A stretch of DNA of 64,000 nt. Source: Shigella phage ESH35. A program made the position numbers and the translations under genes. The DNA is taken from sequence record ON528745; one strand, 5' to 3'. The notes beneath the pieces were generated by a model. The model did no database searches. It saw only the letters and a program-made list of their open reading frames with translations, and was not told the origin of the DNA. Below are positions 8,165 to 53,173 of the stretch, in pieces. Within the stretch, counting starts at the first letter, position 1. The number at the start of each line of letters is the position of its first letter.

Positions 8165-8188
8165 AAACCAAAACAAAGAGGATATTAA

Positions 8189-11034: not shown

Positions 11035-12719
11035 AGAATTTTAAACTAAACCGAGTTAGGTATCAAAATATAATGTCAGTAGGTGGAAATCCTATTGACA
11101 TTCAATTAGATAAGGTTCAAAAAACTCTTATTACTGGACGAAATGGCGGTGGTAAGTCTACTATGTTAGAAGCCATCACATTTGGGCTTTTTGGCAAGCC
11201 ATTTCGTGATGTAAAGAAAGGTCAATTAATAAACAGCACAAATAAGAAAGAACTTTTAGTTGAACTGTGGATGGAATATGATGAGAAAAAGTACTATATC
11301 AAAAGAGGACAAAAACCAAACGTTTTCGAAATCACCGTTAACGGTACACGTCTTAATGAATCTGCCAGCAGTAAAGATTTCCAAGCAGAATTTGAACAGC
11401 TTATCGGAATGTCATATGCCAGTTTCAAGCAGATTGTTGTCCTTGGTACAGCAGGGTATACCCCTTTCATGGGTTTGTCGACCCCTGCACGAAGAAAGCT
11501 TGTGGAAGACCTGCTTGAGGTAGGAACATTAGCTGAAATGGATAAGCTTAATAAAGCACTAATACGTGAATTAAATTCACAAAACCAAGTGCTTGATGTT
11601 AAAAAAGATAGTATTATCCAACAAATTAAAATATATAATGATAACGTTGAACGCCAGAAAAAATTAACTGGTGACAACCTTACTCGTCTTCAAAATATGT
11701 ATGATGATTTGGCAAAAGAAGCTAGAACGCTAAAATCAGAAATAGAAGAAGCTAATGAAAGATTAGTTAATATTGTTTTAGACGAAGACCCGACTGATGC
11801 ATTTAATAAAATCGGTCAAGAAGCAGTTTTAATTAAATCAAAAATTGACTCGTATAATAAAGTCATTAATATGTATCATGAAGGTGGATTATGTCCAACC
11901 TGCTTGTCACAATTAAGTTCCGGTGATAAAGTTGTTTCTAAAATTAAAGATAAAGTTTCTGAATGTACGCATTCGTTTGAACAGCTTTCAACACATCGTG
12001 ATAATTTAAAAGTTCTTGTTGATGAATACCGAGATAATATTAAAACCCAGCAGTCGTTGGCAAATGATATTCGCAATAAAAAGCAATCTCTAATCACGAC
12101 GGTAGATAAAGCTAAAAAAGTTAAAGCAGCTATAGAAAAAGCATCTTCTGAGTTTATTGACCATGCTGATGAAATAGCATTGCTTCAAGAAGAACTTGAT
12201 AAAATTGTTAAGACAAAAACTAATTTAGTAATGGAAAAATACCACCGAGGAATTTTGACTGATATGCTCAAAGATTCTGGTATTAAAGGTGCTATTATTA
12301 AAAAGTACATTCCATTATTTAATAAGCAGATTAACCATTATCTTAAAATAATGGAAGCGGATTATGTGTTTACATTAGATGAAGAATTTAATGAGACAAT
12401 TAAATCCCGTGGTCGTGAAGATTTTAGTTATGCTTCATTCAGTCAAGGTGAAAAAGCGCGAATTGATATTGCTCTTTTATTTACTTGGCGTGATATTGCT
12501 GAAAAAGTTTCAGGTGTTAAAATAAGTTGTTTATTTCTTGATGAAGTGTATGACGGTGCATTTGATGCTGAAGGCATTAAAAATGTAGCTAAAATTTTAG
12601 ATGGTTTGAAGGATACCAACTTCTTCATAATTTCGCATAAAGACCATGATCCGCAGGATTATGGACAGCATATTAAAATGGAAAAAGTTGGTAGATTTAG
12701 TGTTGCCACTATTAATTAA
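11031..12719 (+). CDS. 46: recombination endonuclease subunit (Rad50/SbcC-like ATPase)
   Basis: 562 aa, GTG start; Walker A GRNGGGKST, CPTC zinc hook, long coiled coil, C-terminal Walker B. Confidence 0.92.
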   Translation: MKNFKLNRVRYQNIMSVGGNPIDIQLDKVQKTLITGRNGGGKSTMLEAITFGLFGKPFRDVKKGQLINSTNKKELLVELWMEYDEKKYYIKRGQKPNVFEITVNGTRLNESASSKDFQAEFEQLIGMSYASFKQIVVLGTAGYTPFMGLSTPARRKLVEDLLEVGTLAEMDKLNKALIRELNSQNQVLDVKKDSIIQQIKIYNDNVERQKKLTGDNLTRLQNMYDDLAKEARTLKSEIEEANERLVNIVLDEDPTDAFNKIGQEAVLIKSKIDSYNKVINMYHEGGLCPTCLSQLSSGDKVVSKIKDKVSECTHSFEQLSTHRDNLKVLVDEYRDNIKTQQSLANDIRNKKQSLITTVDKAKKVKAAIEKASSEFIDHADEIALLQEELDKIVKTKTNLVMEKYHRGILTDMLKDSGIKGAIIKKYIPLFNKQINHYLKIMEADYVFTLDEEFNETIKSRGREDFSYASFSQGEKARIDIALLFTWRDIAEKVSGVKISCLFLDEVYDGAFDAEGIKNVAKILDGLKDTNFFIISHKDHDPQDYGQHIKMEKVGRFSVATIN

Positions 12720-13429
12720 TGTTTGTGCTTACAGTTATCATTATGCCACCTTGATAAATTTCCGAAAGTGGTAACTTTACCACAATGGACGCAAGTACCA
12801 GTCTTTTCAGTTTTCTTGCGTCCATTTGGATTTTTCTTGCAGAAATTTCTATGCGCTGCGATAACGCATTTCTTGCCTATCATTCCGCAGAATTCGCAGG
12901 ATGTTTCTTCAAGAATGATTGCTTTAAGCCCGTTTGAGATATTATTTCTGTGTTCTTTAGACATCGGTGGTCTAACTTTAGGATTAGGGTGATTCGGGCA
13001 GTTATCAAAATGCCATCGATTCATATTCCCGCTTAATCCGGACTTACCGCAATGTGGACAAGTTAGTCTTGCTTTATTAGCTACTGCATCAGACATTTTC
13101 TTTCGTGTCTCCTGGGAGAATTCTTTATTCTTTTCTATTTCCCAGAGTTTACGACGAATCCAACCGAAAGTTTTATTGTTACGTTTAGCGTATTTCGTGG
13201 AAACTGTCATCATGTTAGCAGCATAGACTAATTTTGGTTCAGAAGGATAAATTTTTACTAAAAGTTGATGAGCTACATAGTGCTCTTCCGGTGTTAAATC
13301 TACTAAGTTTGAAGCATCATCGCTGCCATTTAAACAGCGTGGTATAATGTGATGAGATTCAGTATAGCAATCAAGTTTTCGAGATTTAGCATTAGAGATT
13401 AACTTTTCATAAATTAGTTTATAATTCAT
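12716..13429 (-). mobile_element. free-standing HNH homing endonuclease with three C-x2-C...H...C zinc-knuckle repeats
   Basis: N-terminal HNH motif (SHHIIPR...NLVDLTPEEH); antisense to neighbours; 4-bp tail-to-tail overlap with gene 46. Confidence 0.75.
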
Positions 13430-16760: not shown

Positions 16761-16982
16761 ATGACTGCTATAATTCCGCAAGAATACATGGCGTCTCTTA
16801 AAGAAAAATATAATCTTTCTGCAACAGAAACACTTTTTGATTTACCAGAAAACCTCCAACTAAAATTTCAGGTAGAATTTCAAAAATTAGTTCACCCAGA
16901 ACAAAAACACTTTACCGCAGTGGTTAAGTCAATTAATGCAGATGGATTAACAATTTTTCACCGACAACTGGTATTAATTTAA
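16761..16982 (+). CDS. hypothetical protein (73 aa)
   Basis: internal ATG of track ORF 16719..16982. Confidence 0.4.
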   Translation: MTAIIPQEYMASLKEKYNLSATETLFDLPENLQLKFQVEFQKLVHPEQKHFTAVVKSINADGLTIFHRQLVLI

Positions 16983-16986
16983 GCAA

Positions 16987-17006
16987 GGGGCTTCGGCCCC
17001 TTATTT
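16987..17006 (+). terminator. UUCG-tetraloop terminator
   Basis: GGGGC-ttcg-GCCCC then TTATTT. Confidence 0.6.
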
Positions 17007-17023
17007 GGAGTATAATATATCAA

Positions 17024-17060
17024 GAGCCTAATAACTCGGGCTATAAACTAAGGAATATCT
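17024..17060 (+). promoter_or_regulatory. gene 43 translational operator hairpin plus RBS
   Basis: AGCC-loop-GGCT hairpin then AAGGAA and ATG, matching the recalled T4 gp43 autoregulatory site. Confidence 0.55.
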
Positions 17061-19757
17061 ATGAAAGAATTTTATATCTCTATCGAAACAGTCGGAAATA
17101 ATATTGTTGAACGTTATATTGATGAAAATGGAAAGGAACGTACCCGTGAAGTAGAATATCTTCCGACTATGTTTAGGCATTGTAAGGAAGAGTCAAAATA
17201 CAAAGACATTTATGGTAAAAATTGTGCTCCTCAAAAATTTCCATCAATGAAAGATGCACGAGACTGGATGAAACGAATGGAAGACATTGGTCTCGAAGCT
17301 CTCGGTATGAACGATTTTAAACTCGCTTATATCAGTGATACATATGGTTCAGAAATTGTTTATGACCGAAAATTTGTTCGTGTAGCTAACTGTGACATTG
17401 AGGTTACTGGTGATAAATTTCCTGACCCAATGAAAGCAGAATATGAAATTGATGCTATCACTCATTATGATTCAATTGACGATCGTTTTTACGTCTTTGA
17501 TTTGTTGAATTCAATGTACGGTTCAGTATCAAAATGGGATGCAAAGTTAGCTGCTAAGCTTGACTGTGAAGGTGGTGATGAAGTTCCTCAAGAAATTCTT
17601 GACCGAGTAATTTATATGCCATTTGATAATGAGCGTGATATGCTCATGGAATATATTAATCTCTGGGAACAGAAACGACCTGCTATTTTTACCGGTTGGA
17701 ATATTGAGGGATTTGACGTTCCGTATATCATGAATCGTGTTAAAATGGTTCTCGGTGAACGTAGTATGAAACGCTTCTCTCCAATCGGTCGAGTAAAATC
17801 TAAACTAATTCAAAATATGTACGGTAGCAAAGAAATTTATTCTATTGATGGCGTATCTATTCTTGATTATTTAGATTTATACAAGAAGTTCGCATTTACT
17901 AATTTGCCATCGTTCTCTTTGGAATCAGTTGCTCAACATGAAACCAAAAAAGGTAAATTGCCGTACGATGGTCCTATTAATAAACTTCGTGAGACTAATC
18001 ATCAACGATACATTAGTTATAACATCATTGACGTAGAATCAGTTCAAGCAATTGATAAAATTCGTGGGTTTATCGATCTAGTTTTAAGTATGTCTTATTA
18101 CGCTAAAATGCCTTTTTCTGGTGTAATGAGTCCTATTAAAACTTGGGATGCTATTATTTTTAACTCACTGAAAGGTGAACATAAGGTTATTCCTCAACAA
18201 GGTTCGCACGTTAAACAGAGTTTTCCAGGTGCATTTGTGTTTGAACCTAAACCGATTGCTCGTCGATACATTATGAGTTTTGACTTGACGTCTCTGTATC
18301 CTAGCATTATTCGTCAGGTTAACATTAGTCCTGAGACTATTCGTGGGCAGTTTAAAGTTCATCCAATTCATGAATATATCGCAGGAACAGCTCCTAAGCC
18401 AAGTGATGAATATTCTTGCTCTCCGAATGGATGGATGTATGATAAGCACCAAGAAGGTATCATTCCAAAGGAAATCGCTAAAGTATTTTTCCAGCGTAAA
18501 GATTGGAAAAAGAAAATGTTCGCGGAAGAAATGAATGCCGAAGCTATTAAAAAGATTATTATGAAAGGTGCAGGGTCTTGCTCAACTAAACCAGAAGTTG
18601 AACGATATGTTAAGTTCAATGATGATTTCTTAAACGAATTATCGAATTACACTGAATCTGTTCTTAATAGTCTGATTGAAGAATGTGAAAAAGCTGCTAC
18701 ACTCGCTAACACAAATCAGCTGAACCGTAAAATTCTTATTAACAGTCTTTATGGTGCTCTTGGTAATATTCATTTCCGCTACTATGATTTGCGAAATGCT
18801 ACTGCTATCACAATTTTCGGTCAAGTCGGTATTCAGTGGATTGCTCGTAAAATTAATGAGTATCTAAATAAAGTATGTGGAACTAATGGTGAAGATTTCA
18901 TCGCAGCAGGTGATACTGATTCGGTATATGTTTGTGTAGATAAAGTTATTGAAAAAGTAGGTCTTGACCGCTTTAAAGAACAAAATGATTTAGTTGAATT
19001 CATGAATCAGTTCGGTAAGAAAAAGATGGAACCTATGATTGATGTTGCATATCGTGAGTTATGTGATTATATGAATAATCGCGAGCATCTGATGCATATG
19101 GACCGTGAAGCTATTTCTTGTCCTCCGCTTGGTTCAAAGGGTGTTGGTGGATTTTGGAAAGCGAAAAAACGTTATGCTCTGAACGTTTATGATATGGAAG
19201 ATAAGCGATTTGCTGAACCACATCTAAAAATCATGGGTATGGAAACTCAGCAGAGTTCAACACCAAAAGCAGTACAAGAAGCTCTCGAAGAAAGTATTCG
19301 TCGTATTCTTCAAGAAGGTGAAGAGTCTGTCCAAGAATATTACAAGAACTTCGAGAAAGAATATCGTCAACTTGACTATAAAGTTATTGCTGAAGTAAAA
19401 ACTGCGAACGATATAGCGAAATATGATGATAAAGGTTGGCCAGGATTTAAATGCCCGTTCCATATTCGTGGTGTGCTAACTTATCGTCGAGCTGTTAGCG
19501 GTTTAGGTGTAGCTCCAATTTTGGATGGAAATAAAGTAATGGTTCTTCCATTGCGTGAAGGAAATCCATTTGGTGACAAATGCATTGCTTGGCCGTCGGG
19601 TACAGAACTTCCAAAAGAAATTCGTTCTGACGTACTGTCTTGGATTGACTACTCAACTTTGTTCCAAAAATCGTTTGTTAAACCGCTTGCGGGCATGTGT
19701 GAATCGGCTGGTATGGACTATGAAGAAAAAGCTTCGTTAGACTTCCTGTTTGGCTGA
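17061..19757 (+). CDS. 43: DNA polymerase (family B)
   Basis: 898 aa; exonuclease and polymerase motifs (DIE, SLYPSII, DTDS). Confidence 0.97.
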   Translation: MKEFYISIETVGNNIVERYIDENGKERTREVEYLPTMFRHCKEESKYKDIYGKNCAPQKFPSMKDARDWMKRMEDIGLEALGMNDFKLAYISDTYGSEIVYDRKFVRVANCDIEVTGDKFPDPMKAEYEIDAITHYDSIDDRFYVFDLLNSMYGSVSKWDAKLAAKLDCEGGDEVPQEILDRVIYMPFDNERDMLMEYINLWEQKRPAIFTGWNIEGFDVPYIMNRVKMVLGERSMKRFSPIGRVKSKLIQNMYGSKEIYSIDGVSILDYLDLYKKFAFTNLPSFSLESVAQHETKKGKLPYDGPINKLRETNHQRYISYNIIDVESVQAIDKIRGFIDLVLSMSYYAKMPFSGVMSPIKTWDAIIFNSLKGEHKVIPQQGSHVKQSFPGAFVFEPKPIARRYIMSFDLTSLYPSIIRQVNISPETIRGQFKVHPIHEYIAGTAPKPSDEYSCSPNGWMYDKHQEGIIPKEIAKVFFQRKDWKKKMFAEEMNAEAIKKIIMKGAGSCSTKPEVERYVKFNDDFLNELSNYTESVLNSLIEECEKAATLANTNQLNRKILINSLYGALGNIHFRYYDLRNATAITIFGQVGIQWIARKINEYLNKVCGTNGEDFIAAGDTDSVYVCVDKVIEKVGLDRFKEQNDLVEFMNQFGKKKMEPMIDVAYRELCDYMNNREHLMHMDREAISCPPLGSKGVGGFWKAKKRYALNVYDMEDKRFAEPHLKIMGMETQQSSTPKAVQEALEESIRRILQEGEESVQEYYKNFEKEYRQLDYKVIAEVKTANDIAKYDDKGWPGFKCPFHIRGVLTYRRAVSGLGVAPILDGNKVMVLPLREGNPFGDKCIAWPSGTELPKEIRSDVLSWIDYSTLFQKSFVKPLAGMCESAGMDYEEKASLDFLFG

Positions 19758-20980: not shown

Positions 20981-21721
20981 ATGATTAGTGACTCTATGAC
21001 AGTTGAAGAAATCCGTCTTCATTTGGGGCTTGCATTAAAAGAAAAAGATTTCGTAGTTGATAAAACTGGTGTTAAAACTATTGAAATTATTGGCGCATCA
21101 TTTGTAGCAGATGAACCGTTTATTTTTGGCGCTCTTAATGATGAATACATTCAGCGTGAACTTGAATGGTATAAATCTAAGAGCTTGTTTGTTAAAGATA
21201 TTCCAGGTGAAACACCAAAGATTTGGCAGCAGGTAGCATCTTCTAAAGGCGAAATTAACTCGAATTATGGTTGGGCTATCTGGTCAGAAGATAACTATGC
21301 CCAGTATGATATGTGTTTAGCTGAACTTGGTCAAAATCCTGATTCTCGACGTGGTATCATGATTTATACTCGTCCATCCATGCAATTTGACTACAATAAA
21401 GATGGTATGTCAGATTTCATGTGTACGAATACAGTACAGTACCTGATTCGTGATAAGAAAGTCAATGCAGTAGTAAGCATGCGTTCAAATGACGTGGTCT
21501 TCGGATTCCGTAATGATTATGCATGGCAAAAATACGTATTAGATAAATTAGTATCTGATTTGAATGCAGGTGATTCAACTCGTCAGTATAAAGCAGGTTC
21601 CATTATATGGAATGTCGGGAGCCTTCATGTGTATTCCCGTCATTTTTATTTGGTTGACCATTGGTGGAAAACTGGTGAAACACATATTGCGAAAAAAGAT
21701 TATAACGGTGAGTGGAAATGA
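20981..21721 (+). CDS. 42: dCMP hydroxymethylase
   Basis: 246 aa, thymidylate-synthase-like fold motifs. Confidence 0.93.
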   Translation: MISDSMTVEEIRLHLGLALKEKDFVVDKTGVKTIEIIGASFVADEPFIFGALNDEYIQRELEWYKSKSLFVKDIPGETPKIWQQVASSKGEINSNYGWAIWSEDNYAQYDMCLAELGQNPDSRRGIMIYTRPSMQFDYNKDGMSDFMCTNTVQYLIRDKKVNAVVSMRSNDVVFGFRNDYAWQKYVLDKLVSDLNAGDSTRQYKAGSIIWNVGSLHVYSRHFYLVDHWWKTGETHIAKKDYNGEWK

Positions 21722-22560
21722 TTCAATTCGTAATTCCAAGCTATCAACGCGTAGGGGCAGTTTCTGCCCTTGATATGTTTCCATCTGATTATGAACCGCA
21801 TATTGTAGTACGTGAACACGAAGAAAAAGCTTATTATGACGCTTACGGGTCTAGAGCTAAAATTATAACTATTCCTGATGATGTTAACGGAATTGCTGGT
21901 ACTCGTAAAGCAATTACTGATATGTATGCAGGTCAACGAATTTGGATGATTGATGATGATACTACTATTTGTATGAGTTCAATGCGAAAGAAAGATGATC
22001 GTCGCTGTGTAGATAAAATTAATCAATTAACTCGTGAACAGTTCTATGAATTGATTCAATACGTTAAAGATGCCATGGATTGCGGTTATTATCATGGCCA
22101 TGCTCGTCTACCTATTTTTAAAATTACTTCATCTTGGGGTAATTATCGTGAAAATTCATATGGATTCACGAATACTTGGTATGACCTTGGAAAACTTACA
22201 ACAGAACAAATTGGGTATGGAAAAATTGATTTATGCGAAGATATGTATGCATTTCTCAATTTAATTAATCAAGGTTATCCGCATTTGGCCTTGTTCAAAT
22301 ATCTGGTTGTATCTGGAAAAGCACAGGCTCCGGGCGGGTGCAGTTCAATTCGTAGTAATTCAAAACATAATAGAGCTCTTGAGCAAATCAATAGAGAGTT
22401 TCCAGAGCAAGCTCGTTGGAAAACTTCTAATATTGAAAAACGAAAATCGTTGGGTGAAGAAGACGAGCCATTAAAGGTTCTTCGCATGTGTGTTTCGCGC
22501 AAAGAAAAATCAGAAGCATTTCATAAGTTTAATGCTATTCATCCAATAGCAGTTGATTAA
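21718..22560 (+). CDS. GT-A fold glycosyltransferase at the beta-gt locus (T2/T6 beta-alpha-gt type, inferred)
   Basis: 280 aa; DxD motif (IDDD); unlike recalled T4 beta-gt; ATGA overlap with gene 42. Confidence 0.6.
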   Translation: MIQFVIPSYQRVGAVSALDMFPSDYEPHIVVREHEEKAYYDAYGSRAKIITIPDDVNGIAGTRKAITDMYAGQRIWMIDDDTTICMSSMRKKDDRRCVDKINQLTREQFYELIQYVKDAMDCGYYHGHARLPIFKITSSWGNYRENSYGFTNTWYDLGKLTTEQIGYGKIDLCEDMYAFLNLINQGYPHLALFKYLVVSGKAQAPGGCSSIRSNSKHNRALEQINREFPEQARWKTSNIEKRKSLGEEDEPLKVLRMCVSRKEKSEAFHKFNAIHPIAVD

Positions 22561-22637
22561 TGCCTAAATTTATTGTGTTATAATTACTCTATCTTTAACC
22601 AGTGAGGAAAATATAATGATGCCTATGGAAAAAATGA

Positions 22638-23819
22638 ATGTCTATTGCAGATTTAAAATCCCGTTTGATTAAAGCTTCCACTTCTAAAATGACTGCTGAA
22701 CTGACTACATCTAAATTCTTTAATGAAAAGGATGTAATCCGTACAAAAATCCCAATGCTTAATATTGCTATTTCTGGTGCGATTGATGGCGGCATGCAGT
22801 CTGGTTTAACTATTTTCGCAGGGCCTTCTAAACACTTTAAATCAAATATGTCTTTGACTATGGTTGCGGCATATTTGAACAAATATCCTGACGCGGTTTG
22901 TCTATTCTATGATAGTGAATTTGGTATTACTCCAGCTTATTTGCGATCTATGGGAGTTGACCCGGAACGAGTAATTCATACGCCGATTCAGTCAGTTGAA
23001 CAGCTGAAAATTGATATGGTGAACCAGCTTGAAGCTATTGAGCGTGGTGAAAAGGTTATTGTATTCATCGACTCAATTGGTAATATGGCTTCTAAGAAAG
23101 AAACGGAAGATGCCTTGAATGAAAAATCTGTGGCAGATATGACTCGTGCTAAATCACTGAAGTCATTATTCCGTATTGTTACTCCTTATTTTAGTATTAA
23201 AAATATTCCATGTGTTGCAGTTAACCATACAATTGAAACAATTGAAATGTTTAGTAAAACCGTGATGACAGGTGGTACAGGCGTAATGTATTCGGCTGAT
23301 ACTGTATTCATTATCGGTAAGCGTCAGATTAAAGATGGTTCTGATCTTCAGGGGTATCAATTTGTTCTAAATGTAGAAAAATCTCGTACCGTTAAAGAAA
23401 AAAGTAAATTCTTTATTGATGTTAAATTTGACGGTGGTATCGATCCTTATTCTGGATTGTTAGATATGGCTCTAGAATTAGGATTTGTAGTAAAACCTAA
23501 AAATGGCTGGTATGCTCGTGAATTTCTTGACGAAGAAACCGGCGAGATGATTCGCGAAGAAAAATCTTGGCGTGCAAAAGATACTAACTGCACTACATTC
23601 TGGGGTCCTTTATTTAAGCATCAACCATTCCGAGATGCTATTAAACGTGCTTATCAGTTAGGTGCTATTGATAGTAATGAAATTGTTGAAGCTGAAGTTG
23701 ATGAATTGATTAACTCAAAGGTTGAAAAATTTAAATCTCCAGAAAGTAAAAGTAAATCAGCTGCTGATTTAGAAACTGACCTCGAGCAGTTAAGTGATAT
23801 GGAAGAATTTAATGAATAA
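22638..23819 (+). CDS. uvsX: RecA-like recombinase
   Basis: 393 aa; Walker A GPSKHFKS; matches recalled T4 UvsX. Confidence 0.95.
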   Translation: MSIADLKSRLIKASTSKMTAELTTSKFFNEKDVIRTKIPMLNIAISGAIDGGMQSGLTIFAGPSKHFKSNMSLTMVAAYLNKYPDAVCLFYDSEFGITPAYLRSMGVDPERVIHTPIQSVEQLKIDMVNQLEAIERGEKVIVFIDSIGNMASKKETEDALNEKSVADMTRAKSLKSLFRIVTPYFSIKNIPCVAVNHTIETIEMFSKTVMTGGTGVMYSADTVFIIGKRQIKDGSDLQGYQFVLNVEKSRTVKEKSKFFIDVKFDGGIDPYSGLLDMALELGFVVKPKNGWYAREFLDEETGEMIREEKSWRAKDTNCTTFWGPLFKHQPFRDAIKRAYQLGAIDSNEIVEAEVDELINSKVEKFKSPESKSKSAADLETDLEQLSDMEEFNE

Positions 23820-24156
23820 AGATGATTTAGATTTAGATCTAGAAATTATCGATGAATCCCCCTCTTCGGAGGGGGAAGAAGAAAGAAAAGAACGTCTTTT
23901 TAATGAATCTCTTAAGATAATTAAATCCGCTATGGAAAATGTTATCCAGGAGATTGTCATTAAACTAGAAGATGGTTCTACACATATAGTGTATGTAACT
24001 AAACTGGATTGGGTTGATGGAAAGGTTGTAATGGACTTTGCTGTTCTTGACCAAGAAAGAAAAGCTGAGTTAGCTCCTCATGTAGAAAAATGTATTACAA
24101 TGCAACTACAAGATGCATTTAATAAAAGGTCAAAGAAAAAGTTTAAATTCTTTTAA
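23812..24156 (+). CDS. 40: head vertex assembly chaperone gp40
   Basis: 114 aa from internal ATG overlapping uvsX stop. Confidence 0.7.
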   Translation: MNKDDLDLDLEIIDESPSSEGEEERKERLFNESLKIIKSAMENVIQEIVIKLEDGSTHIVYVTKLDWVDGKVVMDFAVLDQERKAELAPHVEKCITMQLQDAFNKRSKKKFKFF

Positions 24157-24165
24157 GGAGTAAGT

Positions 24166-25593
24166 GTGGTAGAAATTATTCTTTCTCATCTTATATTTGA
24201 TCAAGCTTATTTTTCAAAAGTTTGGCCATATATGGATTCAGAATATTTTGAAAGTGGTCCAGCTAAAAATACATTCAAATTAATTAAATCTCATGTTAAT
24301 GAGTACCATAGCGTTCCATCTATTAATGCGTTAAATGTTGCATTAGAAAATAGTTCATTTACTGAAACAGAATATTCTGGTGTAAAAACACTTATTTCAA
24401 AACTGGCTGATTCTCCGGAAGACCACAGCTGGTTAGTAAAAGAAACAGAAAAATATGTTCAGCAAAGGGCGATGTTTAACGCCACATCTAAAATAATTGA
24501 AATTCAAACTAATGCTGAGCTTCCTCCGGAAAAACGAAATAAGAAAATGCCGGATGTTGGTGCTATTCCTGACATCATGCGCCAAGCATTATCAATTTCA
24601 TTTGATAGTTACGTTGGTCATGATTGGATGGATGACTACGAAGCACGTTGGCTATCTTATATGAATAAAGCTCGTAAGGTTCCATTTAAACTCAGAATTC
24701 TAAACAAAATTACGAAAGGCGGAGCTGAAACTGGAACGCTGAACGTTTTAATGGCTGGCGTTAACGTTGGTAAGTCATTAGGATTGTGTTCATTGGCAGC
24801 AGATTATTTACAGCTCGGACATAATGTTCTTTACATTTCCATGGAAATGGCAGAAGAAGTCTGCGCTAAACGTATTGATGCTAATATGCTTGATGTTTCT
24901 CTTGATGACATTGATGATGGGCATATTTCTTACGCTGAGTATAAAGGAAAAATGGAAAAATGGCGTGAGAAATCTACTCTCGGTCGTTTAATCGTTAAAC
25001 AGTATCCTACTGGTGGAGCAGATGCTAATACATTTCGATCGCTTTTAAACGAATTAAAGCTCAAGAAGAATTTTGTTCCAACAATCATTATTGTCGACTA
25101 TCTGGGTATTTGTAAATCTTGCCGCATTAGAGTTTACTCAGAAAATAGTTACACAACTGTTAAAGCCATTGCAGAGGAATTACGTGCTCTTGCTGTTGAA
25201 ACCGAAACTGTTCTTTGGACTGCAGCACAGGTTGGTAAACAAGCTTGGGATTCTTCTGATGTTAACATGAGCGATATTGCAGAATCTGCCGGTCTTCCAG
25301 CAACAGCTGATTTTATGCTTGCGGTCATTGAAACCGAGGAGTTAGCAGCTGCTGAACAACAACTTATTAAGCAAATCAAATCACGATATGGTGATAAGAA
25401 TAAATGGAATAAGTTTTTGATGGGTGTTCAAAAAGGAAATCAGAAATGGGTAGAAATTGAACAAGATTCTACTCCAACCGAAGTGAGTGAAGTAGCAGGT
25501 TCACAACAGATTCAGGCTGAACAGAATCGCTATCAAAGAAACGAATCAGCTCGAGCTCAGTTAGATGCTTTGGCAAATGAATTAAAATTTTAG
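24166..25593 (+). CDS. 41: replicative DNA helicase (DnaB-like)
   Basis: 475 aa, GTG start after AAGGAG; Walker A GVNVGKS. Confidence 0.97.
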   Translation: MVEIILSHLIFDQAYFSKVWPYMDSEYFESGPAKNTFKLIKSHVNEYHSVPSINALNVALENSSFTETEYSGVKTLISKLADSPEDHSWLVKETEKYVQQRAMFNATSKIIEIQTNAELPPEKRNKKMPDVGAIPDIMRQALSISFDSYVGHDWMDDYEARWLSYMNKARKVPFKLRILNKITKGGAETGTLNVLMAGVNVGKSLGLCSLAADYLQLGHNVLYISMEMAEEVCAKRIDANMLDVSLDDIDDGHISYAEYKGKMEKWREKSTLGRLIVKQYPTGGADANTFRSLLNELKLKKNFVPTIIIVDYLGICKSCRIRVYSENSYTTVKAIAEELRALAVETETVLWTAAQVGKQAWDSSDVNMSDIAESAGLPATADFMLAVIETEELAAAEQQLIKQIKSRYGDKNKWNKFLMGVQKGNQKWVEIEQDSTPTEVSEVAGSQQIQAEQNRYQRNESARAQLDALANELKF

Positions 25594-25594
25594 T

Positions 25595-25622
25595 TTACAA
25601 GCTGACAAGACTATGGTATAGT
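25595..25622 (+). promoter_or_regulatory. early-promoter-like element
   Basis: TTTACA, 16 bp, TATAGT. Confidence 0.45.
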
Positions 25623-25651
25623 AGTCTTGTTGGTTAAATGAGGAGATTGTT

Positions 25652-25828
25652 ATGGAATTGGTAAAGGTAGTTTTTATGGGGTGGTTTAAGAATGAAAGCA
25701 TGTTTACTAAAGAAATCACAATGATGAAAGATGACGTTCAATGGGCTACTACTCAATATGCTGAAGTTAATAAAGCATTAGTTGAAGCTTTCATTGATGA
25801 CAAGAAAGTATGTGAAGTGGATTGCTGA
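25652..25828 (+). CDS. dmd: Dmd-like small protein (antitoxin against RnlA/LsoA in T4)
   Basis: 58 aa, strong GAGGAG SD; size and position between 41 and 61. Confidence 0.6.
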   Translation: MELVKVVFMGWFKNESMFTKEITMMKDDVQWATTQYAEVNKALVEAFIDDKKVCEVDC

Positions 25829-25835
25829 GGATAAT

Positions 25836-26093
25836 ATGCATATTGTTTTATTTAAACCTACTCCGTATAACGTCAGGAAAAATACTCAATTCAAAGCACT
25901 TATTGCAGATACATGGGAATTGGTGTTAGATATTCCAGCAGAAGAAAGTCCTCCATTTGGTCGAGTGGAATTTATTAAGTTTGCTGTACGTCCTACGAAG
26001 AGGCAGATTCGTCAGTATAAAAGGTATTTTCGTAAAATCGTTAAGCTAGAGAAACAGTTTGTAACATGTGATTACGCAGAAGTTTTAAAATAG
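25836..26093 (+). CDS. hypothetical basic protein (85 aa)
   Basis: internal ATG of track ORF 25782..26093; Arg/Lys-rich. Confidence 0.45.
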   Translation: MHIVLFKPTPYNVRKNTQFKALIADTWELVLDIPAEESPPFGRVEFIKFAVRPTKRQIRQYKRYFRKIVKLEKQFVTCDYAEVLK

Positions 26094-26153
26094 CTGTTTA
26101 CTTTTGTTGGAAATTGAGATACTATATAAACATAAACTACTGAGGAGATTATC

Positions 26154-26447
26154 ATGAAAAAATTTATTTTTGCTACAATTTTTACTTTGGCTTCTTGTGC
26201 TGCTCAGCCTGCTATGGCAGGTTATGATAAAGATTTGTGCGAATGGTCTATGACTGCTGATCAGACTGAGGTTGAAACTCAAATTGAAGCAGATATTATG
26301 AATATCGTTGAGCGCGATCGCCCTGAAATGAAAGCTGAAGTGCAAAAACAGCTTAAGTCTGGTGGTGTAATGCAGTATAATTATGTTCTATATTGCGATA
26401 AAAACTTTAATAATAAAAATATCATCGCTGAAGTGGTAGGTGAATAA
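26154..26447 (+). CDS. sp: spackle-like periplasmic protein
   Basis: 97 aa with cleavable signal peptide; GAGGAG SD. Confidence 0.65.
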   Translation: MKKFIFATIFTLASCAAQPAMAGYDKDLCEWSMTADQTEVETQIEADIMNIVERDRPEMKAEVQKQLKSGGVMQYNYVLYCDKNFNNKNIIAEVVGE

Positions 26448-27073
26448 TGCTCTATCAAATGCACAAGTGCAAAGATACATACAAATATAAAGGTGCCCAG
26501 TGTTATATCATTAATCGTGAAAACGCGGGTCCAGGTCATTCGCATCAATCACGGTTTGTATTCGTTAAAAACAATGAAATTATAGCAGTTGCTAATTATA
26601 TGCTTGTGACTAATGATGTTAATCCGGTGCCTTTTACATATTATAATCTAATGGACTTGGCGTACGATTATAATTGGTTTAATCATGACACTTTGGCTCA
26701 TATCGAAGGCGTAGGATTTGACATCTCTTATTCTAGTTACTCGTTGTGTCCTATGAGCAGAGCTCATAAAGAGCCTGAATATTTTTCATTTCGTCGGCGT
26801 GTAGACTCTAAACGCAGTACAGAGTATGTCGGTGGAATCTTTGTTAAAGATAATCGAATTACTCGCATTATTTATCCTTTGGGCTGTGGTCAAAAAGATA
26901 TTGATGTTGATTTAGACTTTACTGAAAACATCATTAATCATATTGCTTCTGTGTATTTTGATATTGATCACAAAATTGTAATATGTGGATATGAATTACC
27001 ATCAGAAAAACAGTCTAAAGTAGATGTTTCTATTGATGACCAAATTTTTAATGCTTTTATGAATAGAGGTTAA
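26447..27073 (+). CDS. hypothetical protein (208 aa) at the T4 61.2 position
   Basis: ATGA overlap with sp; synteny only. Confidence 0.5.
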   Translation: MLYQMHKCKDTYKYKGAQCYIINRENAGPGHSHQSRFVFVKNNEIIAVANYMLVTNDVNPVPFTYYNLMDLAYDYNWFNHDTLAHIEGVGFDISYSSYSLCPMSRAHKEPEYFSFRRRVDSKRSTEYVGGIFVKDNRITRIIYPLGCGQKDIDVDLDFTENIINHIASVYFDIDHKIVICGYELPSEKQSKVDVSIDDQIFNAFMNRG

Positions 27074-27074
27074 T

Positions 27075-27239
27075 ATGAAAACATATAAAGAATTTATTAA
27101 AGAAGATATGGTAGCTGGAGATTCAGGTGGTAATCCTGAAAATATCTCTACTGGAACAACGTCAGGTGCTGTAGTAAATAAAGGTCCTGAACAGATTCCT
27201 AAAAAGAAAAAAGAGGAATCTAAAGAAAAAGAAGAGTAA
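27075..27239 (+). CDS. hypothetical small protein (54 aa), Lys/Glu-rich tail
   Basis: ATG ORF filling the gap before gene 61. Confidence 0.35.
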   Translation: MKTYKEFIKEDMVAGDSGGNPENISTGTTSGAVVNKGPEQIPKKKKEESKEKEE

Positions 27240-27241
27240 AA

Positions 27242-28270
27242 ATGTCATTAATACCTTGGATTGATAATGAGTTTGCATACCGTGCATTGGCTCATTTACC
27301 TAAATTCGCACAAGTAAATAATAGTTCAACTTTTAAATTACGGTTTAGATGTCCCGTTTGTGGAGATTCAAAAACCGATCAAAATAAAGCCCGTGGATGG
27401 TATTATGGCGATAATAATGAAGGAAATATTCATTGTTATAACTGTAACTATCATGCACCAATTGGAATATATTTAAAGGAGTTTGAACCTGATTTATATC
27501 GTGAGTATATCTTTGAAATAAGAAAAGAAAAAGGTAAAAGTCGTCCAGTAGAAAAACCTAAAGAACTTCCTAAACAACCTGAGAAAAAAATAATTAAATC
27601 TCTTCCGTCATGTATTAGATTAGATAAACTGGCGGAAGACCATCCAATTATAAAATATGTAAAAGCTCGTTGTATTCCAAAGGATAAATGGAAATATCTT
27701 TGGTTTACAACCGAATGGCCTAAATTAGTTAATAGTATAGCGCCAGGAACATATAAAAAGGAAATACCTGAGCCTCGTCTTGTTATTCCAATTTATAATG
27801 CTAACGGAAAAGCCGAGTCTTTTCAAGGCCGTGCATTAAAGAAAGATGCTCCTCAAAAATATATCACCATAAAAGCTTATCCTGAAGCAACAAAAATCTA
27901 TGGCGTTGAACGAGTTAAAGATGGTGATGTATATGTTCTAGAAGGACCTATAGATTCACTTTTTATTGAAAATGGTATAGCTATTACGGGTGGTCAATTA
28001 GACCTAGAAGTTGTTCCATTTAAAGATAGACGTGTGTGGGTTTTAGATAATGAACCTCGTCATCCTGACACTATTAAACGAATGACTAAATTAGTTGATG
28101 CAGGAGAAAGGGTTATGTTTTGGGACAAATCTCCCTGGAAATCAAAAGATGTTAATGATATGATTAGAAAGGAAGGTGCAACCCCTGAACAAATTATGGA
28201 ATATATGAAAAATAATATTGCTCAGGGGTTGATGGCTAAAATGCGGTTATCTAAATATGCTAAGATTTAA
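27242..28270 (+). CDS. 61: DNA primase
   Basis: 342 aa; N-terminal zinc-binding CPVCGDS...CYNCN; TOPRIM-like region. Confidence 0.92.
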   Translation: MSLIPWIDNEFAYRALAHLPKFAQVNNSSTFKLRFRCPVCGDSKTDQNKARGWYYGDNNEGNIHCYNCNYHAPIGIYLKEFEPDLYREYIFEIRKEKGKSRPVEKPKELPKQPEKKIIKSLPSCIRLDKLAEDHPIIKYVKARCIPKDKWKYLWFTTEWPKLVNSIAPGTYKKEIPEPRLVIPIYNANGKAESFQGRALKKDAPQKYITIKAYPEATKIYGVERVKDGDVYVLEGPIDSLFIENGIAITGGQLDLEVVPFKDRRVWVLDNEPRHPDTIKRMTKLVDAGERVMFWDKSPWKSKDVNDMIRKEGATPEQIMEYMKNNIAQGLMAKMRLSKYAKI

Positions 28271-28467
28271 ATTAACCCAACTAAAGCGAATGCTAAATCT
28301 ACAAATGTATCAAGAGTAACTACTGGAATATTAATACCATGTGCAATTGCAACAGGTGATAGAATAAAGTTCCAGAGTAAAATTCCTACCATAGCAGAAA
28401 TAGTAAAAGCTATACGTTTTTTATTACCTTTTATGGCATTAACAAGTGCCATTAATTTTTGTACCAT
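28267..28467 (-). CDS. antisense small hydrophobic protein (66 aa)
   Basis: strong AAGGAGG SD 4 nt upstream; tail-to-tail 4-bp overlap with gene 61; two hydrophobic segments. Confidence 0.35.
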   Translation of the reverse strand: MVQKLMALVNAIKGNKKRIAFTISAMVGILLWNFILSPVAIAHGINIPVVTLDTFVDLAFALVGLI

Positions 28468-28478
28468 ATGTCCTCCTT

Positions 28479-28504
28479 ATTGCTTTATATATTTATTGTA
28501 TAAT
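28479..28504 (+). promoter_or_regulatory. MotA-dependent middle promoter for gene 56
   Basis: perfect MotA box ATTGCTTTA, 11 bp, then TATAAT. Confidence 0.55.
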
Positions 28505-28540
28505 TAATCTACTAACCCATGAATTGAAAGGAAAAATAAC

Positions 28541-29059
28541 ATGCCACATTTCAACGAATGTAGTCAACTGATCGAAGGCGCTGATAAAGCTCAAAATGAA
28601 TATTGGGATATTCTCGGTGATGAAAAAGACCCGCTGCAGGTAATGCTTGACATGCAGAAATCTCTGCAGATTCGTTTAGCTAAAGATAAACCTGAATATA
28701 ATCGTCATCCTGATGATTTGGCTACTGCCGGTGAAGTTGTTGATTGGCTACGTAATCAGAAAGATTATATTGACGATGAATTCCGTGAACTTCTGACATC
28801 TCTTGGCGGTATGAGCAATGGCGAAAAAGATGCATCTGCTGTATGGAAGCCTTGGAAAGCTCAACATGGTGAACGCCGTGAAACTCTGATTACTGATTTG
28901 TCTCCACAAGACCAATTGGAAATTAAATTTGAAATGATTGATATTCTCCATTTCGTTCTGAACATGTTCCAAGGTCTTGGTCTTACAGCTGAAGAAATCT
29001 TTAAACTTTATTACCTGAAAAATGCTGAAAATTTCGCACGTCAAGACCGAGGTTATTAA
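28541..29059 (+). CDS. 56: dCTPase/dUTPase (MazG-like NTP pyrophosphohydrolase)
   Basis: 172 aa, acidic EExxE-type motifs. Confidence 0.7.
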   Translation: MPHFNECSQLIEGADKAQNEYWDILGDEKDPLQVMLDMQKSLQIRLAKDKPEYNRHPDDLATAGEVVDWLRNQKDYIDDEFRELLTSLGGMSNGEKDASAVWKPWKAQHGERRETLITDLSPQDQLEIKFEMIDILHFVLNMFQGLGLTAEEIFKLYYLKNAENFARQDRGY

Positions 29060-29089
29060 CAGCTCGTCTTAAAAGCCGCGAGAATTTAT

Positions 29090-29097
29090 TATAAATA
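29090..29097 (+). promoter_or_regulatory. late promoter TATAAATA upstream of soc
   Basis: exact TATAAATA about 30 nt upstream of soc start. Confidence 0.55.
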
Positions 29098-40284: not shown

Positions 40285-42105
40285 GTGATGATTAAGAATG
40301 AAATTAAAATTCTGAGCGATATTGAACATATCAAAAAGCGTAGCGGCATGTATATTGGCTCTTCTGCTAATGAAATGCATGAGCGCTTTCTGTTTGGTAA
40401 ATGGGAAAGTGTTCAGTATGTACCTGGTCTTGTTAAGCTTATTGATGAAATTATCGATAACTCAGTAGATGAAGGTATTCGTACTAAGTTTAAATTCGCG
40501 AATAAAATTAATGTTACCATTAAAGATAATCAGGTAACAGTTGAAGATAACGGTCGCGGTATTCCACAAGCGATGGTTAAAACACCTACTGGTGAAGAAA
40601 TTCCTGGTCCTGTTGCTGCCTGGACTATTCCAAAAGCAGGTGGTAACTTCGGTGATGATAAAGAACGCGTCACCGGTGGTATGAATGGTGTTGGTTCTAG
40701 TTTGACAAACATTTTTTCTGTGATGTTTGTCGGTGAAACTGGCGATGGTCAAAATAATATTGTAGTTCGTTGTTCAAATGGTATGGAAAATAAATCCTGG
40801 GAAACTATTCCTGGAAAATGGAAAGGAACTCGTGTTACTTTCATTCCTGATTTTATGTCATTTGAAACTAATGAGCTGTCTCAGGTTTATCTTGACATTA
40901 CACTGGACCGTCTCCAGACACTTGCTGTCGTTTATCCTGATATTCAATTTACTTTTAATGGTAAAAAGGTTCAGGGCAATTTTAAGAAATATGCACGACA
41001 GTATGATGAACATGCTATTGTTCAAGAACAAGAAAATTGTTCTATTGCGGTTGGTCGTTCACCGGATGGTTTTCGTCAATTAACTTACGTGAATAACATT
41101 CATACTAAGAATGGTGGCCATCACATTGACTGTGTTATGGATGATATTTGCGAAGACCTTATTCCACAAATCAAACGTAAATTCAAAATTGATGTAACTA
41201 AAGCACGCGTTAAAGAATGTTTGACTATCGTTATGTTTGTTCGTGATATGAAAAACATGCGATTTGATTCTCAAACTAAAGAGCGTTTGACTTCTCCATT
41301 TGGCGAAATTCGTAGTCATATTCAACTTGATGCTAAAAAGATTTCACGCGCTATTCTAAATAATGAAGCAATTCTGATGCCGATTATTGAAGCTGCGTTG
41401 GCTCGTAAATTGGCGGCAGAAAAAGCAGCAGAAACTAAAGCAGCTAAAAAGGCTTCTAAAGCTAAGGTTCATAAACATATCAAAGCGAATCTTTGTGGTA
41501 AAGATGCTGACACTACTCTTTTCTTGACTGAGGGTGATTCTGCTATCGGATATCTTATTGATGTTCGTGATAAAGAACTTCATGGTGGTTATCCATTGCG
41601 TGGTAAAGTTCTTAACAGCTGGGGTATGTCATATGCTGATATGCTTAAAAACAAAGAACTATTTGATATTTGCGCAATCACTGGATTAGTTCTTGGTGAA
41701 AAAGCTGAAAACTTGAATTATCATAATATTGCTATTATGACCGATGCTGACCATGATGGTCTAGGAAGCATTTATCCTTCTCTGCTCGGGTTTTTTAGTA
41801 ATTGGCCAGAATTGTTTGAGCAAGGACGAATTCGCTTTGTCAAAACTCCTGTAATCATCGCTCAGGTCGGTAAAAAACAAGAATGGTTTTATACAATCGC
41901 TGAATATGAGAGTGCCAAAGATGCTCTACCTAAACATAGCATCCGTTATATTAAAGGACTTGGCTCTTTGGAAAAATCTGAATATCGTGAGATGATTCAA
42001 AATCCAGCATATGATGTTGTTAAACTTCCTGAGAACTGGAAAGAGCTTTTTGAAATGCTCATGGGAGATAATGCTGACCTTCGCAAAGAATGGATGAGCC
42101 AGTAG
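40285..42105 (+). CDS. 39: DNA topoisomerase II large (ATPase) subunit, unsplit
   Basis: 606 aa from GTG (605 from ATG 40288); GHKL ATPase motifs. Confidence 0.93.
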   Translation: MMIKNEIKILSDIEHIKKRSGMYIGSSANEMHERFLFGKWESVQYVPGLVKLIDEIIDNSVDEGIRTKFKFANKINVTIKDNQVTVEDNGRGIPQAMVKTPTGEEIPGPVAAWTIPKAGGNFGDDKERVTGGMNGVGSSLTNIFSVMFVGETGDGQNNIVVRCSNGMENKSWETIPGKWKGTRVTFIPDFMSFETNELSQVYLDITLDRLQTLAVVYPDIQFTFNGKKVQGNFKKYARQYDEHAIVQEQENCSIAVGRSPDGFRQLTYVNNIHTKNGGHHIDCVMDDICEDLIPQIKRKFKIDVTKARVKECLTIVMFVRDMKNMRFDSQTKERLTSPFGEIRSHIQLDAKKISRAILNNEAILMPIIEAALARKLAAEKAAETKAAKKASKAKVHKHIKANLCGKDADTTLFLTEGDSAIGYLIDVRDKELHGGYPLRGKVLNSWGMSYADMLKNKELFDICAITGLVLGEKAENLNYHNIAIMTDADHDGLGSIYPSLLGFFSNWPELFEQGRIRFVKTPVIIAQVGKKQEWFYTIAEYESAKDALPKHSIRYIKGLGSLEKSEYREMIQNPAYDVVKLPENWKELFEMLMGDNADLRKEWMSQ

Positions 42106-52335: not shown

Positions 52336-52365
52336 AGACCCTCCTTTTAAGGATATTTATTCAAA

Positions 52366-53142: not shown

Positions 53143-53154
53143 ATAAACCTCCAA

Positions 53155-53168
53155 GGGGCCGAAGCCCC
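53155..53168. other. GC-rich hairpin between genes 37 and 38
   Basis: GGGGC-cgaa-GCCCC read on + strand. Confidence 0.4.
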
Positions 53169-53173
53169 TCTTA

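Follow-up and report, generated by a model that had tools for sequence, protein, structure and literature searches.

The helicase–primase interval of Shigella phage ESH35 as a T4-type dmd–tifA–sp–adfA–61.1 block, with a possible head-directed role for the gp61.1 peptide

Between the helicase gene 41 and the primase gene 61 of bacteriophage T4 lie five genes, 61.5 to 61.1, that were named the ‘anti-TA island’ by Srikant, Guegler and Laub in 2022 (PMC9391042). Within this block, T4 Dmd inhibits the toxins RnlA and LsoA, whilst T4 TifA inhibits the endoribonuclease ToxN (PMC9391042). AdfA, the 61.2 product, carries a specificity switch at residue 164, where histidine permits binding and neutralisation of DarT1 and the arginine of phage RB69 does not (PMC11257639). 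RB69, a Mosigvirus, also has dmd, 61.4/tifA, sp, 61.2/adfA and 61.1 between genes 41 and 61, in the same order as the locus described here, and differs from it in several respects: its interval additionally holds ORF041c, ORF040c, imm.1, imm and ORF033c, its TifA has 70 aa, its AdfA is in the non-neutralising Arg164 state, its 61.1 is a long form split into ORF032c plus a 92-aa gp61.1, and its proteins share 48-69% identity of aligned columns with those of the present locus.

The window analysed here, a stretch of 64,000 nt from Shigella phage ESH35, carries the five genes of the T4 island in the same order, on the same strand and between the same flanking genes (Table 1). The interval aligns with T4 over 1647 of 1647 nt, with 0 gaps and 96.2% identity (63 nucleotide differences), and the gene order dmd(61.5)-tifA(61.4)-sp(61.3)-adfA(61.2)-61.1 is collinear. 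Alignment of each ORF with the T4 61.1-61.5 proteins, a check that the initial annotation of this DNA had proposed, gives 95-98% identity for all five without an indel, and the lengths are equal except for Dmd, which has 58 aa here and 60 in T4. The five ORFs fill the space between genes 41 and 61 apart from two short intergenic gaps. Four of them match Pfam families, the family matches of all five lie far above chance, and the block is present at 80-99% identity in 539 phage records. Taken whole, and including the functions assigned by homology to T4, the interval is therefore very probably the dmd-tifA-sp-adfA-61.1 block of a Tequatrovirus. The locus is already known, and re-identifying a published island adds little; four of its five genes have known jobs in T4, and three of these would be expected to block bacterial toxin-antitoxin defences. 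Minus-strand ORFs within the island (e.g. 26085-26345, 86 aa) were taken as spurious because the plus-strand genes that they overlap encode conserved proteins, and neither Rfam nor tRNA scanning of the entire window gave a match.

Table 1. Positions of the genes and sequence elements in and around the helicase–primase interval of the window.
Feature	Position	Strand	Length	Family match	Remarks
Gene 41 (helicase)	24166-25593				5' neighbour of the block
Block of five ORFs	25594-27240	+			Between helicase gene 41 and primase gene 61
Early-promoter-like site	25594..25622	+			TTTACA, 17-nt spacer, TG-n-TATAGT; directly 3' of the gene 41 stop
dmd (T4 61.5)	25652-25828	+	58 aa	Pfam PF17587 (Dmd), 146.5 bits (cut-off 27)	
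tifA (T4 61.4)	25836-26093	+	85 aa from ATG	Pfam DUF7279, 72 bits (cut-off 24.5)	
Weak promoter-like sequence	26096..26125	+			GTTTAC ... TACTAT in the tifA-sp gap; read off the sequence
sp (T4 61.3, Spackle)	26154-26447	+	97 aa	Pfam PF25676 (T4_Spackle), 150.4 bits	
adfA (T4 61.2)	26447-27073	+	208 aa	Pfam PF23813 (AdfA), 448.1 bits	Residues 1-208 on profile 1-211
49-nt sequence	27029..27077	+	49 nt		Single copy; adfA end through the 61.1 ATG
61.1	27075-27239	+	54 aa	PHROG 1823, E 7e-34	Lys/Glu-rich tail
Gene 61 (primase)	27242-28270				3' neighbour of the block

The initial annotation, made from the sequence alone, had described this interval accurately. All five of the small ORFs that it listed are present on the plus strand at the sizes claimed: a Dmd-like ORF with a strong Shine-Dalgarno (SD) sequence (GAGGAG, 6 nt 5' of the ATG), an Arg/Lys-rich protein that proves to be the homologue of T4 61.4 (TifA), a spackle-like secreted protein whose signal peptide is consistent with its match in the PDB, a protein of the AdfA family at the T4 61.2 position, and an ORF with a Lys/Glu tail. 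Its recognition of a T4-like region of counter-defence and host-interaction functions likewise stands, but its forecast of new genes does not. That the island might hold unmatched, host-specific counter-defence genes is a notion to which the plasticity of the locus between genera, evident from the extra ORFs of RB69 (040c, 041c, imm, imm.1 and 033c), lends some colour, as does an extra 118-aa AdfA-like gene found in many Tequatroviruses. However, every ORF here has its close, indel-free T4 counterpart, so that none is left unmatched to serve as a candidate, and the extra genes of the relatives are missing from this window; the notion is scarcely credible, and the full T4 alignment rules it out for this window. 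For the defences named in the initial annotation (rnlAB, toxIN and DarTG), earlier work has established Dmd, TifA and AdfA as the proteins that counter them.

The Dmd protein matches the PDB entry 5HY3_B (‘Antitoxin Dmd’, E 6e-35) and is identical to T4 Dmd at 57 of its 58 residues, the exception being K45E. A CGA-to-TGA change at 25826 creates the stop codon 25826-25828 and removes Arg59-Gly60, and the exact 58-aa sequence is a singleton, occurring on one contig only, that of Shigella phage ESH35. By its identity to the T4 protein, this Dmd probably inhibits the host RNases RnlA and LsoA in the manner of an antitoxin, and would bind these toxins in place of their short-lived antitoxins. The tifA ATG lies 8 nt 3' of the dmd stop; the ORF could be called at 103 aa if an upstream TTG inside dmd were used, and the T4 annotation is 85 aa. 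TifA differs from its T4 counterpart at two of 85 residues (C61Y and I83V; 83/85 identical). Its translation carries ...AVRPTKRQIRQYKRYFRK..., in which a Pro-Thr helix cap is followed by the basic cluster R52, K55, R56 and R59, the cap and the four basic residues being those needed for RNA binding according to the residue roles established for TifA (PMC10853763). F41, R52, P53-T54, K55, R56 and R59 are all retained, F41 being the weaker wild-type state and not the F41S gain-of-function variant. This TifA is accordingly a putative RNA-binding ToxN inhibitor, by T4 identity, which together with RNA would bind the ToxN RNase and inhibit it; the native dose of T4-type TifA is insufficient against plasmid-borne toxIN.

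The sp product matches the PDB entry 6X6O (‘Protein spackle’, E 3e-61), and the mature chain 7CN6 aligns to its residues 23-97, as would be expected if the signal peptide is cleaved after AMA. T4 Spackle is an inhibitor of the gp5 tail lysozyme and confers superinfection exclusion. With only two differences from T4 (A11T and K53E; 95 of 97 residues identical), the protein encoded here is likely to be a secreted periplasmic inhibitor of this lysozyme, which would travel to the periplasm and block the tail lysozyme of phage that arrive later. Spackle belongs with superinfection exclusion and not with counter-defence.

AdfA retains 200 of 208 residues of the T4 protein (8 substitutions), and a PDB search found no solved structure for it. 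His165 here aligns with RB69 Arg164 and so represents the DarT1-neutralising state. By T4 identity, this protein is presumably anti-DarT factor A, a neutraliser of the ADP-ribosyltransferase DarT1, and would bind DarT1 and thereby stop ADP-ribosylation of phage DNA. Deletion of adfA from T4 gave no phenotype on DarTG1, even in the absence of adfN (PMC11257639), and the true target of this allele may therefore be another DarT. The 3' end of adfA lies within the 49-nt sequence that is present once in the window (Table 1). Many relatives have two copies of this sequence, one on either side of a 358-bp insertion, as seen in an alignment with Ge15, and in L002 the 49-nt direct repeat has a 358-nt spacing. 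The insertion encodes the 118-aa protein mentioned above, a paralogue of the C-terminal half of AdfA (35% identical to AdfA 109-208; 34.1 bits to Pfam AdfA), and its presence or absence between the 49-nt repeats shows the gain and loss of anti-DarT-like genes by the island. The natural 58-aa Dmd, together with the AdfA and TifA substitutions, provides ready-made variants for the study of anti-toxin specificity.

The early-promoter-like site that opens the interval has 10 of 12 hexamer matches plus the TG in a promoter scan, and is identical to T4, the nearest difference lying at 25631; the T4 early promoter upstream of dmd drives dmd-61.4 (PMC9391042). The scan by itself proves nothing, as 9 early-promoter-like sites were found in the region against 9.6 expected from shuffles. 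The second promoter-like sequence, in the tifA-sp gap, falls below the scan threshold and is weak evidence. It is followed on its 3' side by an initiation region, TGAGGAGATT..ATG, shared with dmd, which forms family D2 in a repeat search that otherwise returned short, chance-level repeats within the island. No late promoter core, TATAAATA, was present on either strand within 24000-28500, the island contained no exact MotA-box match, and a terminator scan found none. The block would probably be read as early transcripts, with dmd-tifA as a first unit, transcribed from the promoter directly after gene 41, and sp-adfA-61.1 as a second, running into the primase gene 61 with a possible start in the tifA-sp gap.

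Gene 61.1 is the sole member of the five without a known function, and a literature search for one found two passing mentions only. Its product is identical to that of T4 at 52 of 54 residues (F4Y and I26T), and the exact allele of the window occurs on at least 1000 contigs. The initial annotation had implied a host-specific accessory gene; the distribution of 61.1 contradicts this, since none of the other four genes is found as widely (1396 phage records for 61.1, with Klebsiella, Acinetobacter and Aeromonas phages among them, against 491-800 for the true anti-toxin genes of the island) and since 61.1 adjoins the primase in the distant T4-like phages inspected. Loci from five Straboviridae lineages were inspected, those of Acinetobacter, Enterobacter and Escherichia phages among them, and each has 61.1 directly upstream of the primase gene. 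A gp61.1 profile searched against 1.84 billion representatives recovered this family alone, as 50 small proteins, and gp23 fell below the threshold at this database size. Pfam, NCBIfam and PDB searches with gp61.1 and its long-form homologues returned no family besides a segment of gp23. The AF2 model is of low confidence throughout (pLDDT 59.5, pTM 0.18), and the peptide is predicted to be disordered. Its GDSGG was considered as a serine-protease motif and rejected, because homologues have GDAGG, GDAEG or GDADG at this place.

Two described components of the T4 head resemble parts of gp61.1. The first is the N-terminal capsid targeting sequence (CTS) of the internal proteins IPI, IPII and IPIII, in which residues 4 and 7 are critical for targeting and residues 8 and 10 for processing (PMC9026906). 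Residues 1-10 of gp61.1 (MKTYKEFIKE) match MKTYQEFIAE of IPII and IPIII at 8 of 10 positions, with Y4, F7, I8 and E10 kept, and IPI begins MKTFKEF; the match is short, with E values of 0.003-0.013 when the search set was 12 proteins and 0.23-0.92 when it was the six-frame ORFs of T4. Unlike the internal proteins, gp61.1 is much shorter, has no similarity to them after residue 10 and is encoded in the early region beside the primase, not in the ip loci. The second is gp23, in which residues 58-94 run from the last part of the propeptide through the Glu65/Ala66 cleavage site into the start of the N-arm, and in which the substitutions A66D, A94V and G97S alter head length. Residues 3-39 of gp61.1 align with this segment as a single sequence, ungapped over 37 residues at 43% identity, and a gp61.1 Glu falls on the cleavage site. 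In the PDB, gp23 is the sole family below E 1 (E 0.0085 from the single sequence and 1.2e-5 from the profile), and among 2387 six-frame T4 ORFs it ranks second only to gp61.1 itself (E 1.7e-7), followed by ipII and ipIII (E 0.23 and 0.92), with ipI (E 8.4) among chance-level matches. All four of these T4 relatives encode substrates of the gp21 protease. Inspected by eye, almost every one of the 50 family representatives has a Glu 1-2 positions ahead of the MVAGD core, P3 being hydrophobic in most cases, and this conserved Glu aligns with the real gp21 cleavage site of gp23. Residues 66-105 of gp23 lie inside the unexpanded shell and probably contact the scaffold (PMC9546572). In contrast to gp23, gp61.1 is without the HK97-fold body (about 450 aa), consisting of a predicted disordered 54-aa peptide with a Lys/Glu tail; that it might itself be a capsid protein was rejected, given its 54 aa, the restriction of the alignment to residues 3-39 and the lack of a stable fold in the AF2 prediction.

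These comparisons suggest, and we only infer, that gp61.1 may be a head-targeted peptide processed by a protease. Within T4, all the proteins related to it in sequence are gp21 substrates, which points to head assembly or packaging and away from a host-specific anti-toxin role. Our best guess is that the CTS-like N-terminus and the gp23-like segment would carry gp61.1 into the prohead core, and that gp21 would cut it after Glu10 to leave a 44-residue peptide. Extended to the whole family, the proposal is that its roughly 50 clusters in T4-like phages are unrecognised prohead-targeted peptides from the gp23 propeptide/N-arm junction, cut by gp21 at a conserved hydrophobic-x-Glu site to release a conserved, basic-tailed peptide of about 45 residues. 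This peptide might remain in the head and pass with the DNA into the next host, or else tune the contacts of gp23, scaffold and protease. In this full form the proposal is tentative and may well be wrong. Against a head-directed role, the P1' residue of gp61.1 is Asp, not Ala, long-form homologues have no N-terminal CTS, and a search of the accessible literature found no report of gp61.1 in virions. Furthermore, the absence of a TATAAATA core from 24000-28500 means that gp61.1 is probably made early, before heads assemble; an early-made, stable gp61.1 peptide could still be packaged.

The probable early expression of 61.1 would suit a cytoplasmic counter-defence factor, acting as a decoy of the gp23 N-terminus for a capsid-sensing defence, as a competing substrate that shields protease-sensing CBASS from gp21, or as a further anti-toxin. 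The gene adjoins three anti-toxin genes, and the other genes of the region have been rated attractive anti-toxin candidates (PMC9391042); its product reproduces a conserved stretch of gp23 together with the I/L-x-E site, host CD-NTases carry I/L-x-E loops that serve as gp21 tripwires (PMC12991175), and predicted disorder is frequent among decoy peptides. However, 61.1 is spread much more widely than the true anti-toxin genes, its constant place beside the primase in the loci inspected is unlike that of a host-tuned accessory gene, and T4 lacking acb1 and acb2 stays fully sensitive to gp21-sensing CBASS although it carries 61.1. We regard such a cytoplasmic role as unlikely, if still worth weighing. 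A further scenario, in which the peptide itself is functionless, would make 61.1 either a leader ORF translationally coupled to gene 61 or the decaying remnant of a long ancestor of about 155 aa. The 61.1 stop is only 2 nt from the gene 61 ATG, gene 61 itself lacks a strong SD, T4-type phages no longer have the N-terminal domain of the long form, and in RB69 the long form is split. This scenario is nevertheless improbable in view of the amino-acid conservation (18 columns do not vary in an alignment of 14 short forms that are 63-96% identical), the recurrence of core and basic tail in 50 clusters at 50% identity, and the abundance of the exact allele of the window.

The idea that gp61.1 is packaged and cut by gp21 provides a concrete and cheaply testable hypothesis for the one gene of the island still unassigned; were it true, gp61.1 would be a further conserved part of the T4 head, itself well studied. 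The names ‘major capsid protein’ and ‘major capsid domain-containing protein’ that 61.1 carries in some database entries are misleading.

The five small genes between genes 41 and 61 form a T4-type block that is already known from published work. The ORF listing confirmed the number and sizes of ORFs proposed in the initial annotation and places all five on the + strand; the strong Shine-Dalgarno sequence it had ascribed to the first of them is GAGGAG, 6 nt ahead of the ATG. The interval is nearly fully coding, with gaps only at 25594-25651 and 26094-26153. It is matched at 80-99% identity by 539 phage records (megablast), nearly all T-even phages of Escherichia, Shigella or Yersinia, whose annotations include ‘discriminator of mRNA degradation’ and ‘spackle’. 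In T4 (NC_000866), dmd, 61.4, sp, 61.2 and 61.1 likewise lie between 41 and 61, and global alignment of the two intervals spans 1647/1647 nt with 0 gaps and 96.2% identity (63 substitutions). Family searches assigned Dmd (146.5 bits), TifA (DUF7279, 72 bits), Spackle (T4_Spackle, 150.4 bits) and AdfA (448.1 bits) to Pfam, whilst the fifth ORF matches PHROG 1823. The identification of the locus as the T4 interval therefore holds, and the pairwise alignments proposed with it gave every ORF a close T4 counterpart; the suggestion that unmatched members are candidates for host-specific counter-defence does not hold, as this collinearity and the family matches leave no member unmatched.

Features of the interval between genes 41 and 61 and their comparison with T4
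Feature	Position	Strand	Identical to T4	Differences	Source
gene 41, helicase (flank)	24166-25593
promoter-like site TTTACA-17-TG-n-TATAGT, directly after gene 41 stop	25594-25622				promoter scan
dmd (61.5), 58 aa	25652-25828	+	57/58	K45E; shorter by 2 residues	ORF listing
tifA (61.4), 85 aa	25836-26093	+	83/85	C61Y, I83V	ORF listing
sp (61.3), 97 aa	26154-26447	+	95/97	A11T, K53E	ORF listing
adfA (61.2), 208 aa	26447-27073	+	200/208	8 substitutions	ORF listing
61.1, 54 aa	27075-27239	+	52/54	F4Y, I26T	ORF listing
gene 61, primase (flank)	27242-28270

In T4, Spackle is an inhibitor of the gp5 tail lysozyme and thereby takes part in superinfection exclusion. Its structure has been solved (PDB 6X6O, 6XC0/1, 7CN6/7). 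The putative functions of Dmd, TifA and AdfA are taken here from papers on the T4 and RB69 proteins. Dmd directly inhibits the RNase toxins RnlA and LsoA (PMC9391042; PMC8266594), and its best PDB match is 5HY3, a solved structure of Dmd in complex with LsoA. Gene 61.4, since renamed tifA, encodes an 85-aa ToxN inhibitor and shares a transcript with dmd that starts at an early promoter ahead of dmd (PMC9391042); at its native level of expression TifA is enough to counter toxIN on the chromosome, but not on a plasmid. AdfA binds and neutralises DarT1, the decisive feature being His in place of Arg at position 164 of the RB69 protein (PMC11257639). Srikant et al. named the region the ‘anti-TA island’ and regarded its other genes as candidates (PMC9391042), so that the proposed experiments on rnlAB, toxIN and DarTG hosts have largely been done for T4.

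The alleles carried here differ from those of T4 in a few respects. In dmd, a C-to-T change at 25826 converts CGA to TGA (25826-25828), removing Arg59-Gly60; the change may be genuine or an error of sequencing. The new stop falls within the tifA Shine-Dalgarno sequence (GAGGA, 25827-25831), placing dmd termination 8 nt, not 2 nt, ahead of the tifA ATG. Among ~15 billion proteins, this exact 58-aa Dmd occurs solely in Shigella phage ESH35 (URY15900.1), as does the exact AdfA allele (URY15903.1). TifA binds RNA via a Pro-Thr-capped basic helix, and residues F41, R52, P53, T54, K55, R56 and R59 (PMC10853763) are all kept in the translation; it should therefore behave as the T4 allele. AdfA His165 aligns with RB69 Arg164. 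Yet T4 deleted for adfA shows no phenotype on DarTG1 (PMC11257639), which leaves the natural target of T4-type AdfA uncertain.

The promoter-like site after gene 41 has the same sequence in T4 and agrees with the published dmd-tifA early promoter (PMC9391042). As the promoter scan overall gave no enrichment over shuffled sequence, this call rests on the literature. The tifA-sp gap contains a weaker GTTTAC...TACTAT sequence and shares with dmd the initiation region TGAGGAGATT..ATG. The scan found no terminator-like sites in the region. Just past the gene 41 stop, an 8-bp inverted repeat (25606-25629; CAAGACTA / TAGTCTTG, loop 8 nt) spans the dmd promoter's -10 element and is identical in T4.

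[quoted passage not shown] Several annotators label 61.1 ‘major capsid protein’, and one tblastn match falls within gene 23 of Acinetobacter phage 133. Residues 57-93 of T4 gp23 align ungapped with gp61.1 2-38 (16/37 identical), setting I-K-E10 on L-T-E65, the site cut by the prohead protease gp21. Amongst all PDB sequences gp23 is the sole family matched (E 0.0085 with the single sequence, 1.2e-5 with the profile). Against 2387 six-frame T4 ORFs, the profile recovers itself, gene 23 (E 1.7e-7) and then the ipII and ipIII N-termini (E 0.23, 0.92), with ipI lower, at chance level (E 8.4); gp23, IPII, IPIII and IPI are all gp21 substrates. Residues 1-10, MKTYKEFIKE, share 8/10 positions with the CTS, MKTYQEFIAE, including positions 4 and 7, which matter for targeting, and 8 and 10, for processing (PMC9026906). 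On visual inspection, almost all of the 50 family representatives carry Glu 1-2 residues ahead of the MVAGD core, mostly with a hydrophobic P3, and a Lys/Arg tail beyond the core. In gp23, residues 66-105 are flexible and lie inside the unexpanded shell, where scaffold contact is probable; they go on to build the N-arm and N-fist, and head-length mutations fall within this stretch (PMC9546572); gp61.1 alone is predicted to be disordered.

From these likenesses we tentatively infer, at well below even confidence, that gp61.1 is a prohead-targeted peptide: its CTS-like start and gp23-like segment would take it into the prohead core, where gp21 would cut past Glu10 to release a 44-residue peptide. 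Against such a role, P1' is Asp, long homologues have no N-terminal CTS, and a search of the literature found no report of gp61.1 in virions. Expression is also probably early, since a motif search found no late-promoter core in the region. That gp61.1 instead acts as a cytoplasmic decoy, for a capsid sensor or for gp21-sensing CBASS (PMC12991175), is unlikely, and that 61.1 serves as a translational leader for primase is more improbable still.

Of the five genes, 61.1 has the widest distribution, with 1396 phage records (Klebsiella 276, Acinetobacter 65, Aeromonas 63 and Enterobacter 56 phages among them), against 898 for Spackle, 800 for Dmd, 680 for TifA and 491 for AdfA. In RB43, a Karamvirus and a Lazarusvirus, a 154-166 aa homologue with a C-terminal gp61.1-like segment lies directly upstream of the primase gene, whilst in one Krischvirus two small ORFs separate a short, 58-aa form from it. 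In RB69 (2318-2784 of its locus), ORF032c (63 aa) and gp61.1 (92 aa) jointly equal the ~155-aa Karamvirus form, the gene thus being frameshifted or split in the deposited sequence. Comparison of long, short and split forms indicates that the 54-aa T4 type is a C-terminal module retained from a longer ancestor. Run against 1.84 billion representatives, the profile retrieved no more than 50 clusters, and each of these is a small protein of the same family. In some distant relatives (P0100, P0114, P0118) a second module is fused to the gp61.1 module or comes after it; this second one starts with a CTS-like M-x-E-V-x-x-FKQFVE and continues into a ~90-aa domain without assigned function.

In some two-thirds of the 40 closest relatives, adfA and 61.1 are separated by a 358-bp insertion (phage Ge15 locus, L002 2936-3342), bounded by a 49-nt direct repeat that is single, without insert, in the window (27029-27077) and T4. 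The insertion encodes a 118-aa protein paralogous to the C-terminal half of AdfA (34.1 bits to Pfam AdfA; 35% identical to residues 109-208), with Cys at the position of His165.

Elsewhere in the window, 28478-28499 lacks the dam methyltransferase gene located after primase in T4 (16846-17625); a 66-aa minus-strand ORF without Pfam match (28267-28467) instead overlaps the gene 61 end, and gene 56 (28499-29059) has just 74% nucleotide identity to T4. At 21704-22649, a 282-aa ORF (21712-22560) matching Pfam TAGT (TET-associated glycosyltransferase, 39.5 bits) takes the place of T4 segA and beta-glucosyltransferase; this ORF may be a T2/T6-type second glucosyltransferase, in which case DNA sugar modification would differ from that of T4. 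Between genes 46 and 45.2, a 237-aa minus-strand ORF absent from T4 (12716-13429; no Pfam match) looks like a homing endonuclease from its HNH-like motif (HHIIPR...EEH) and repeated CxxC...H. The topoisomerase II large subunit is one 606-aa ORF with GyrB-type domains (40285-42105), and T4 mobA, 60.1 and the gene 60 translational bypass segment are missing (window 41706-41769, T4 3911-2793); genes 39 and 60 are therefore fused. The remaining differences from T4, at 2406-2409, 3685-3705, 8173-8198, 29059-29090 and 52361-56301, are that the T4 segments with I-TevII (and its nrdD intron), mobC, mobB and segF have no window counterpart and that in the gene 37/38 tail-fibre region 3.9 kb has no T4 match at the nucleotide level.
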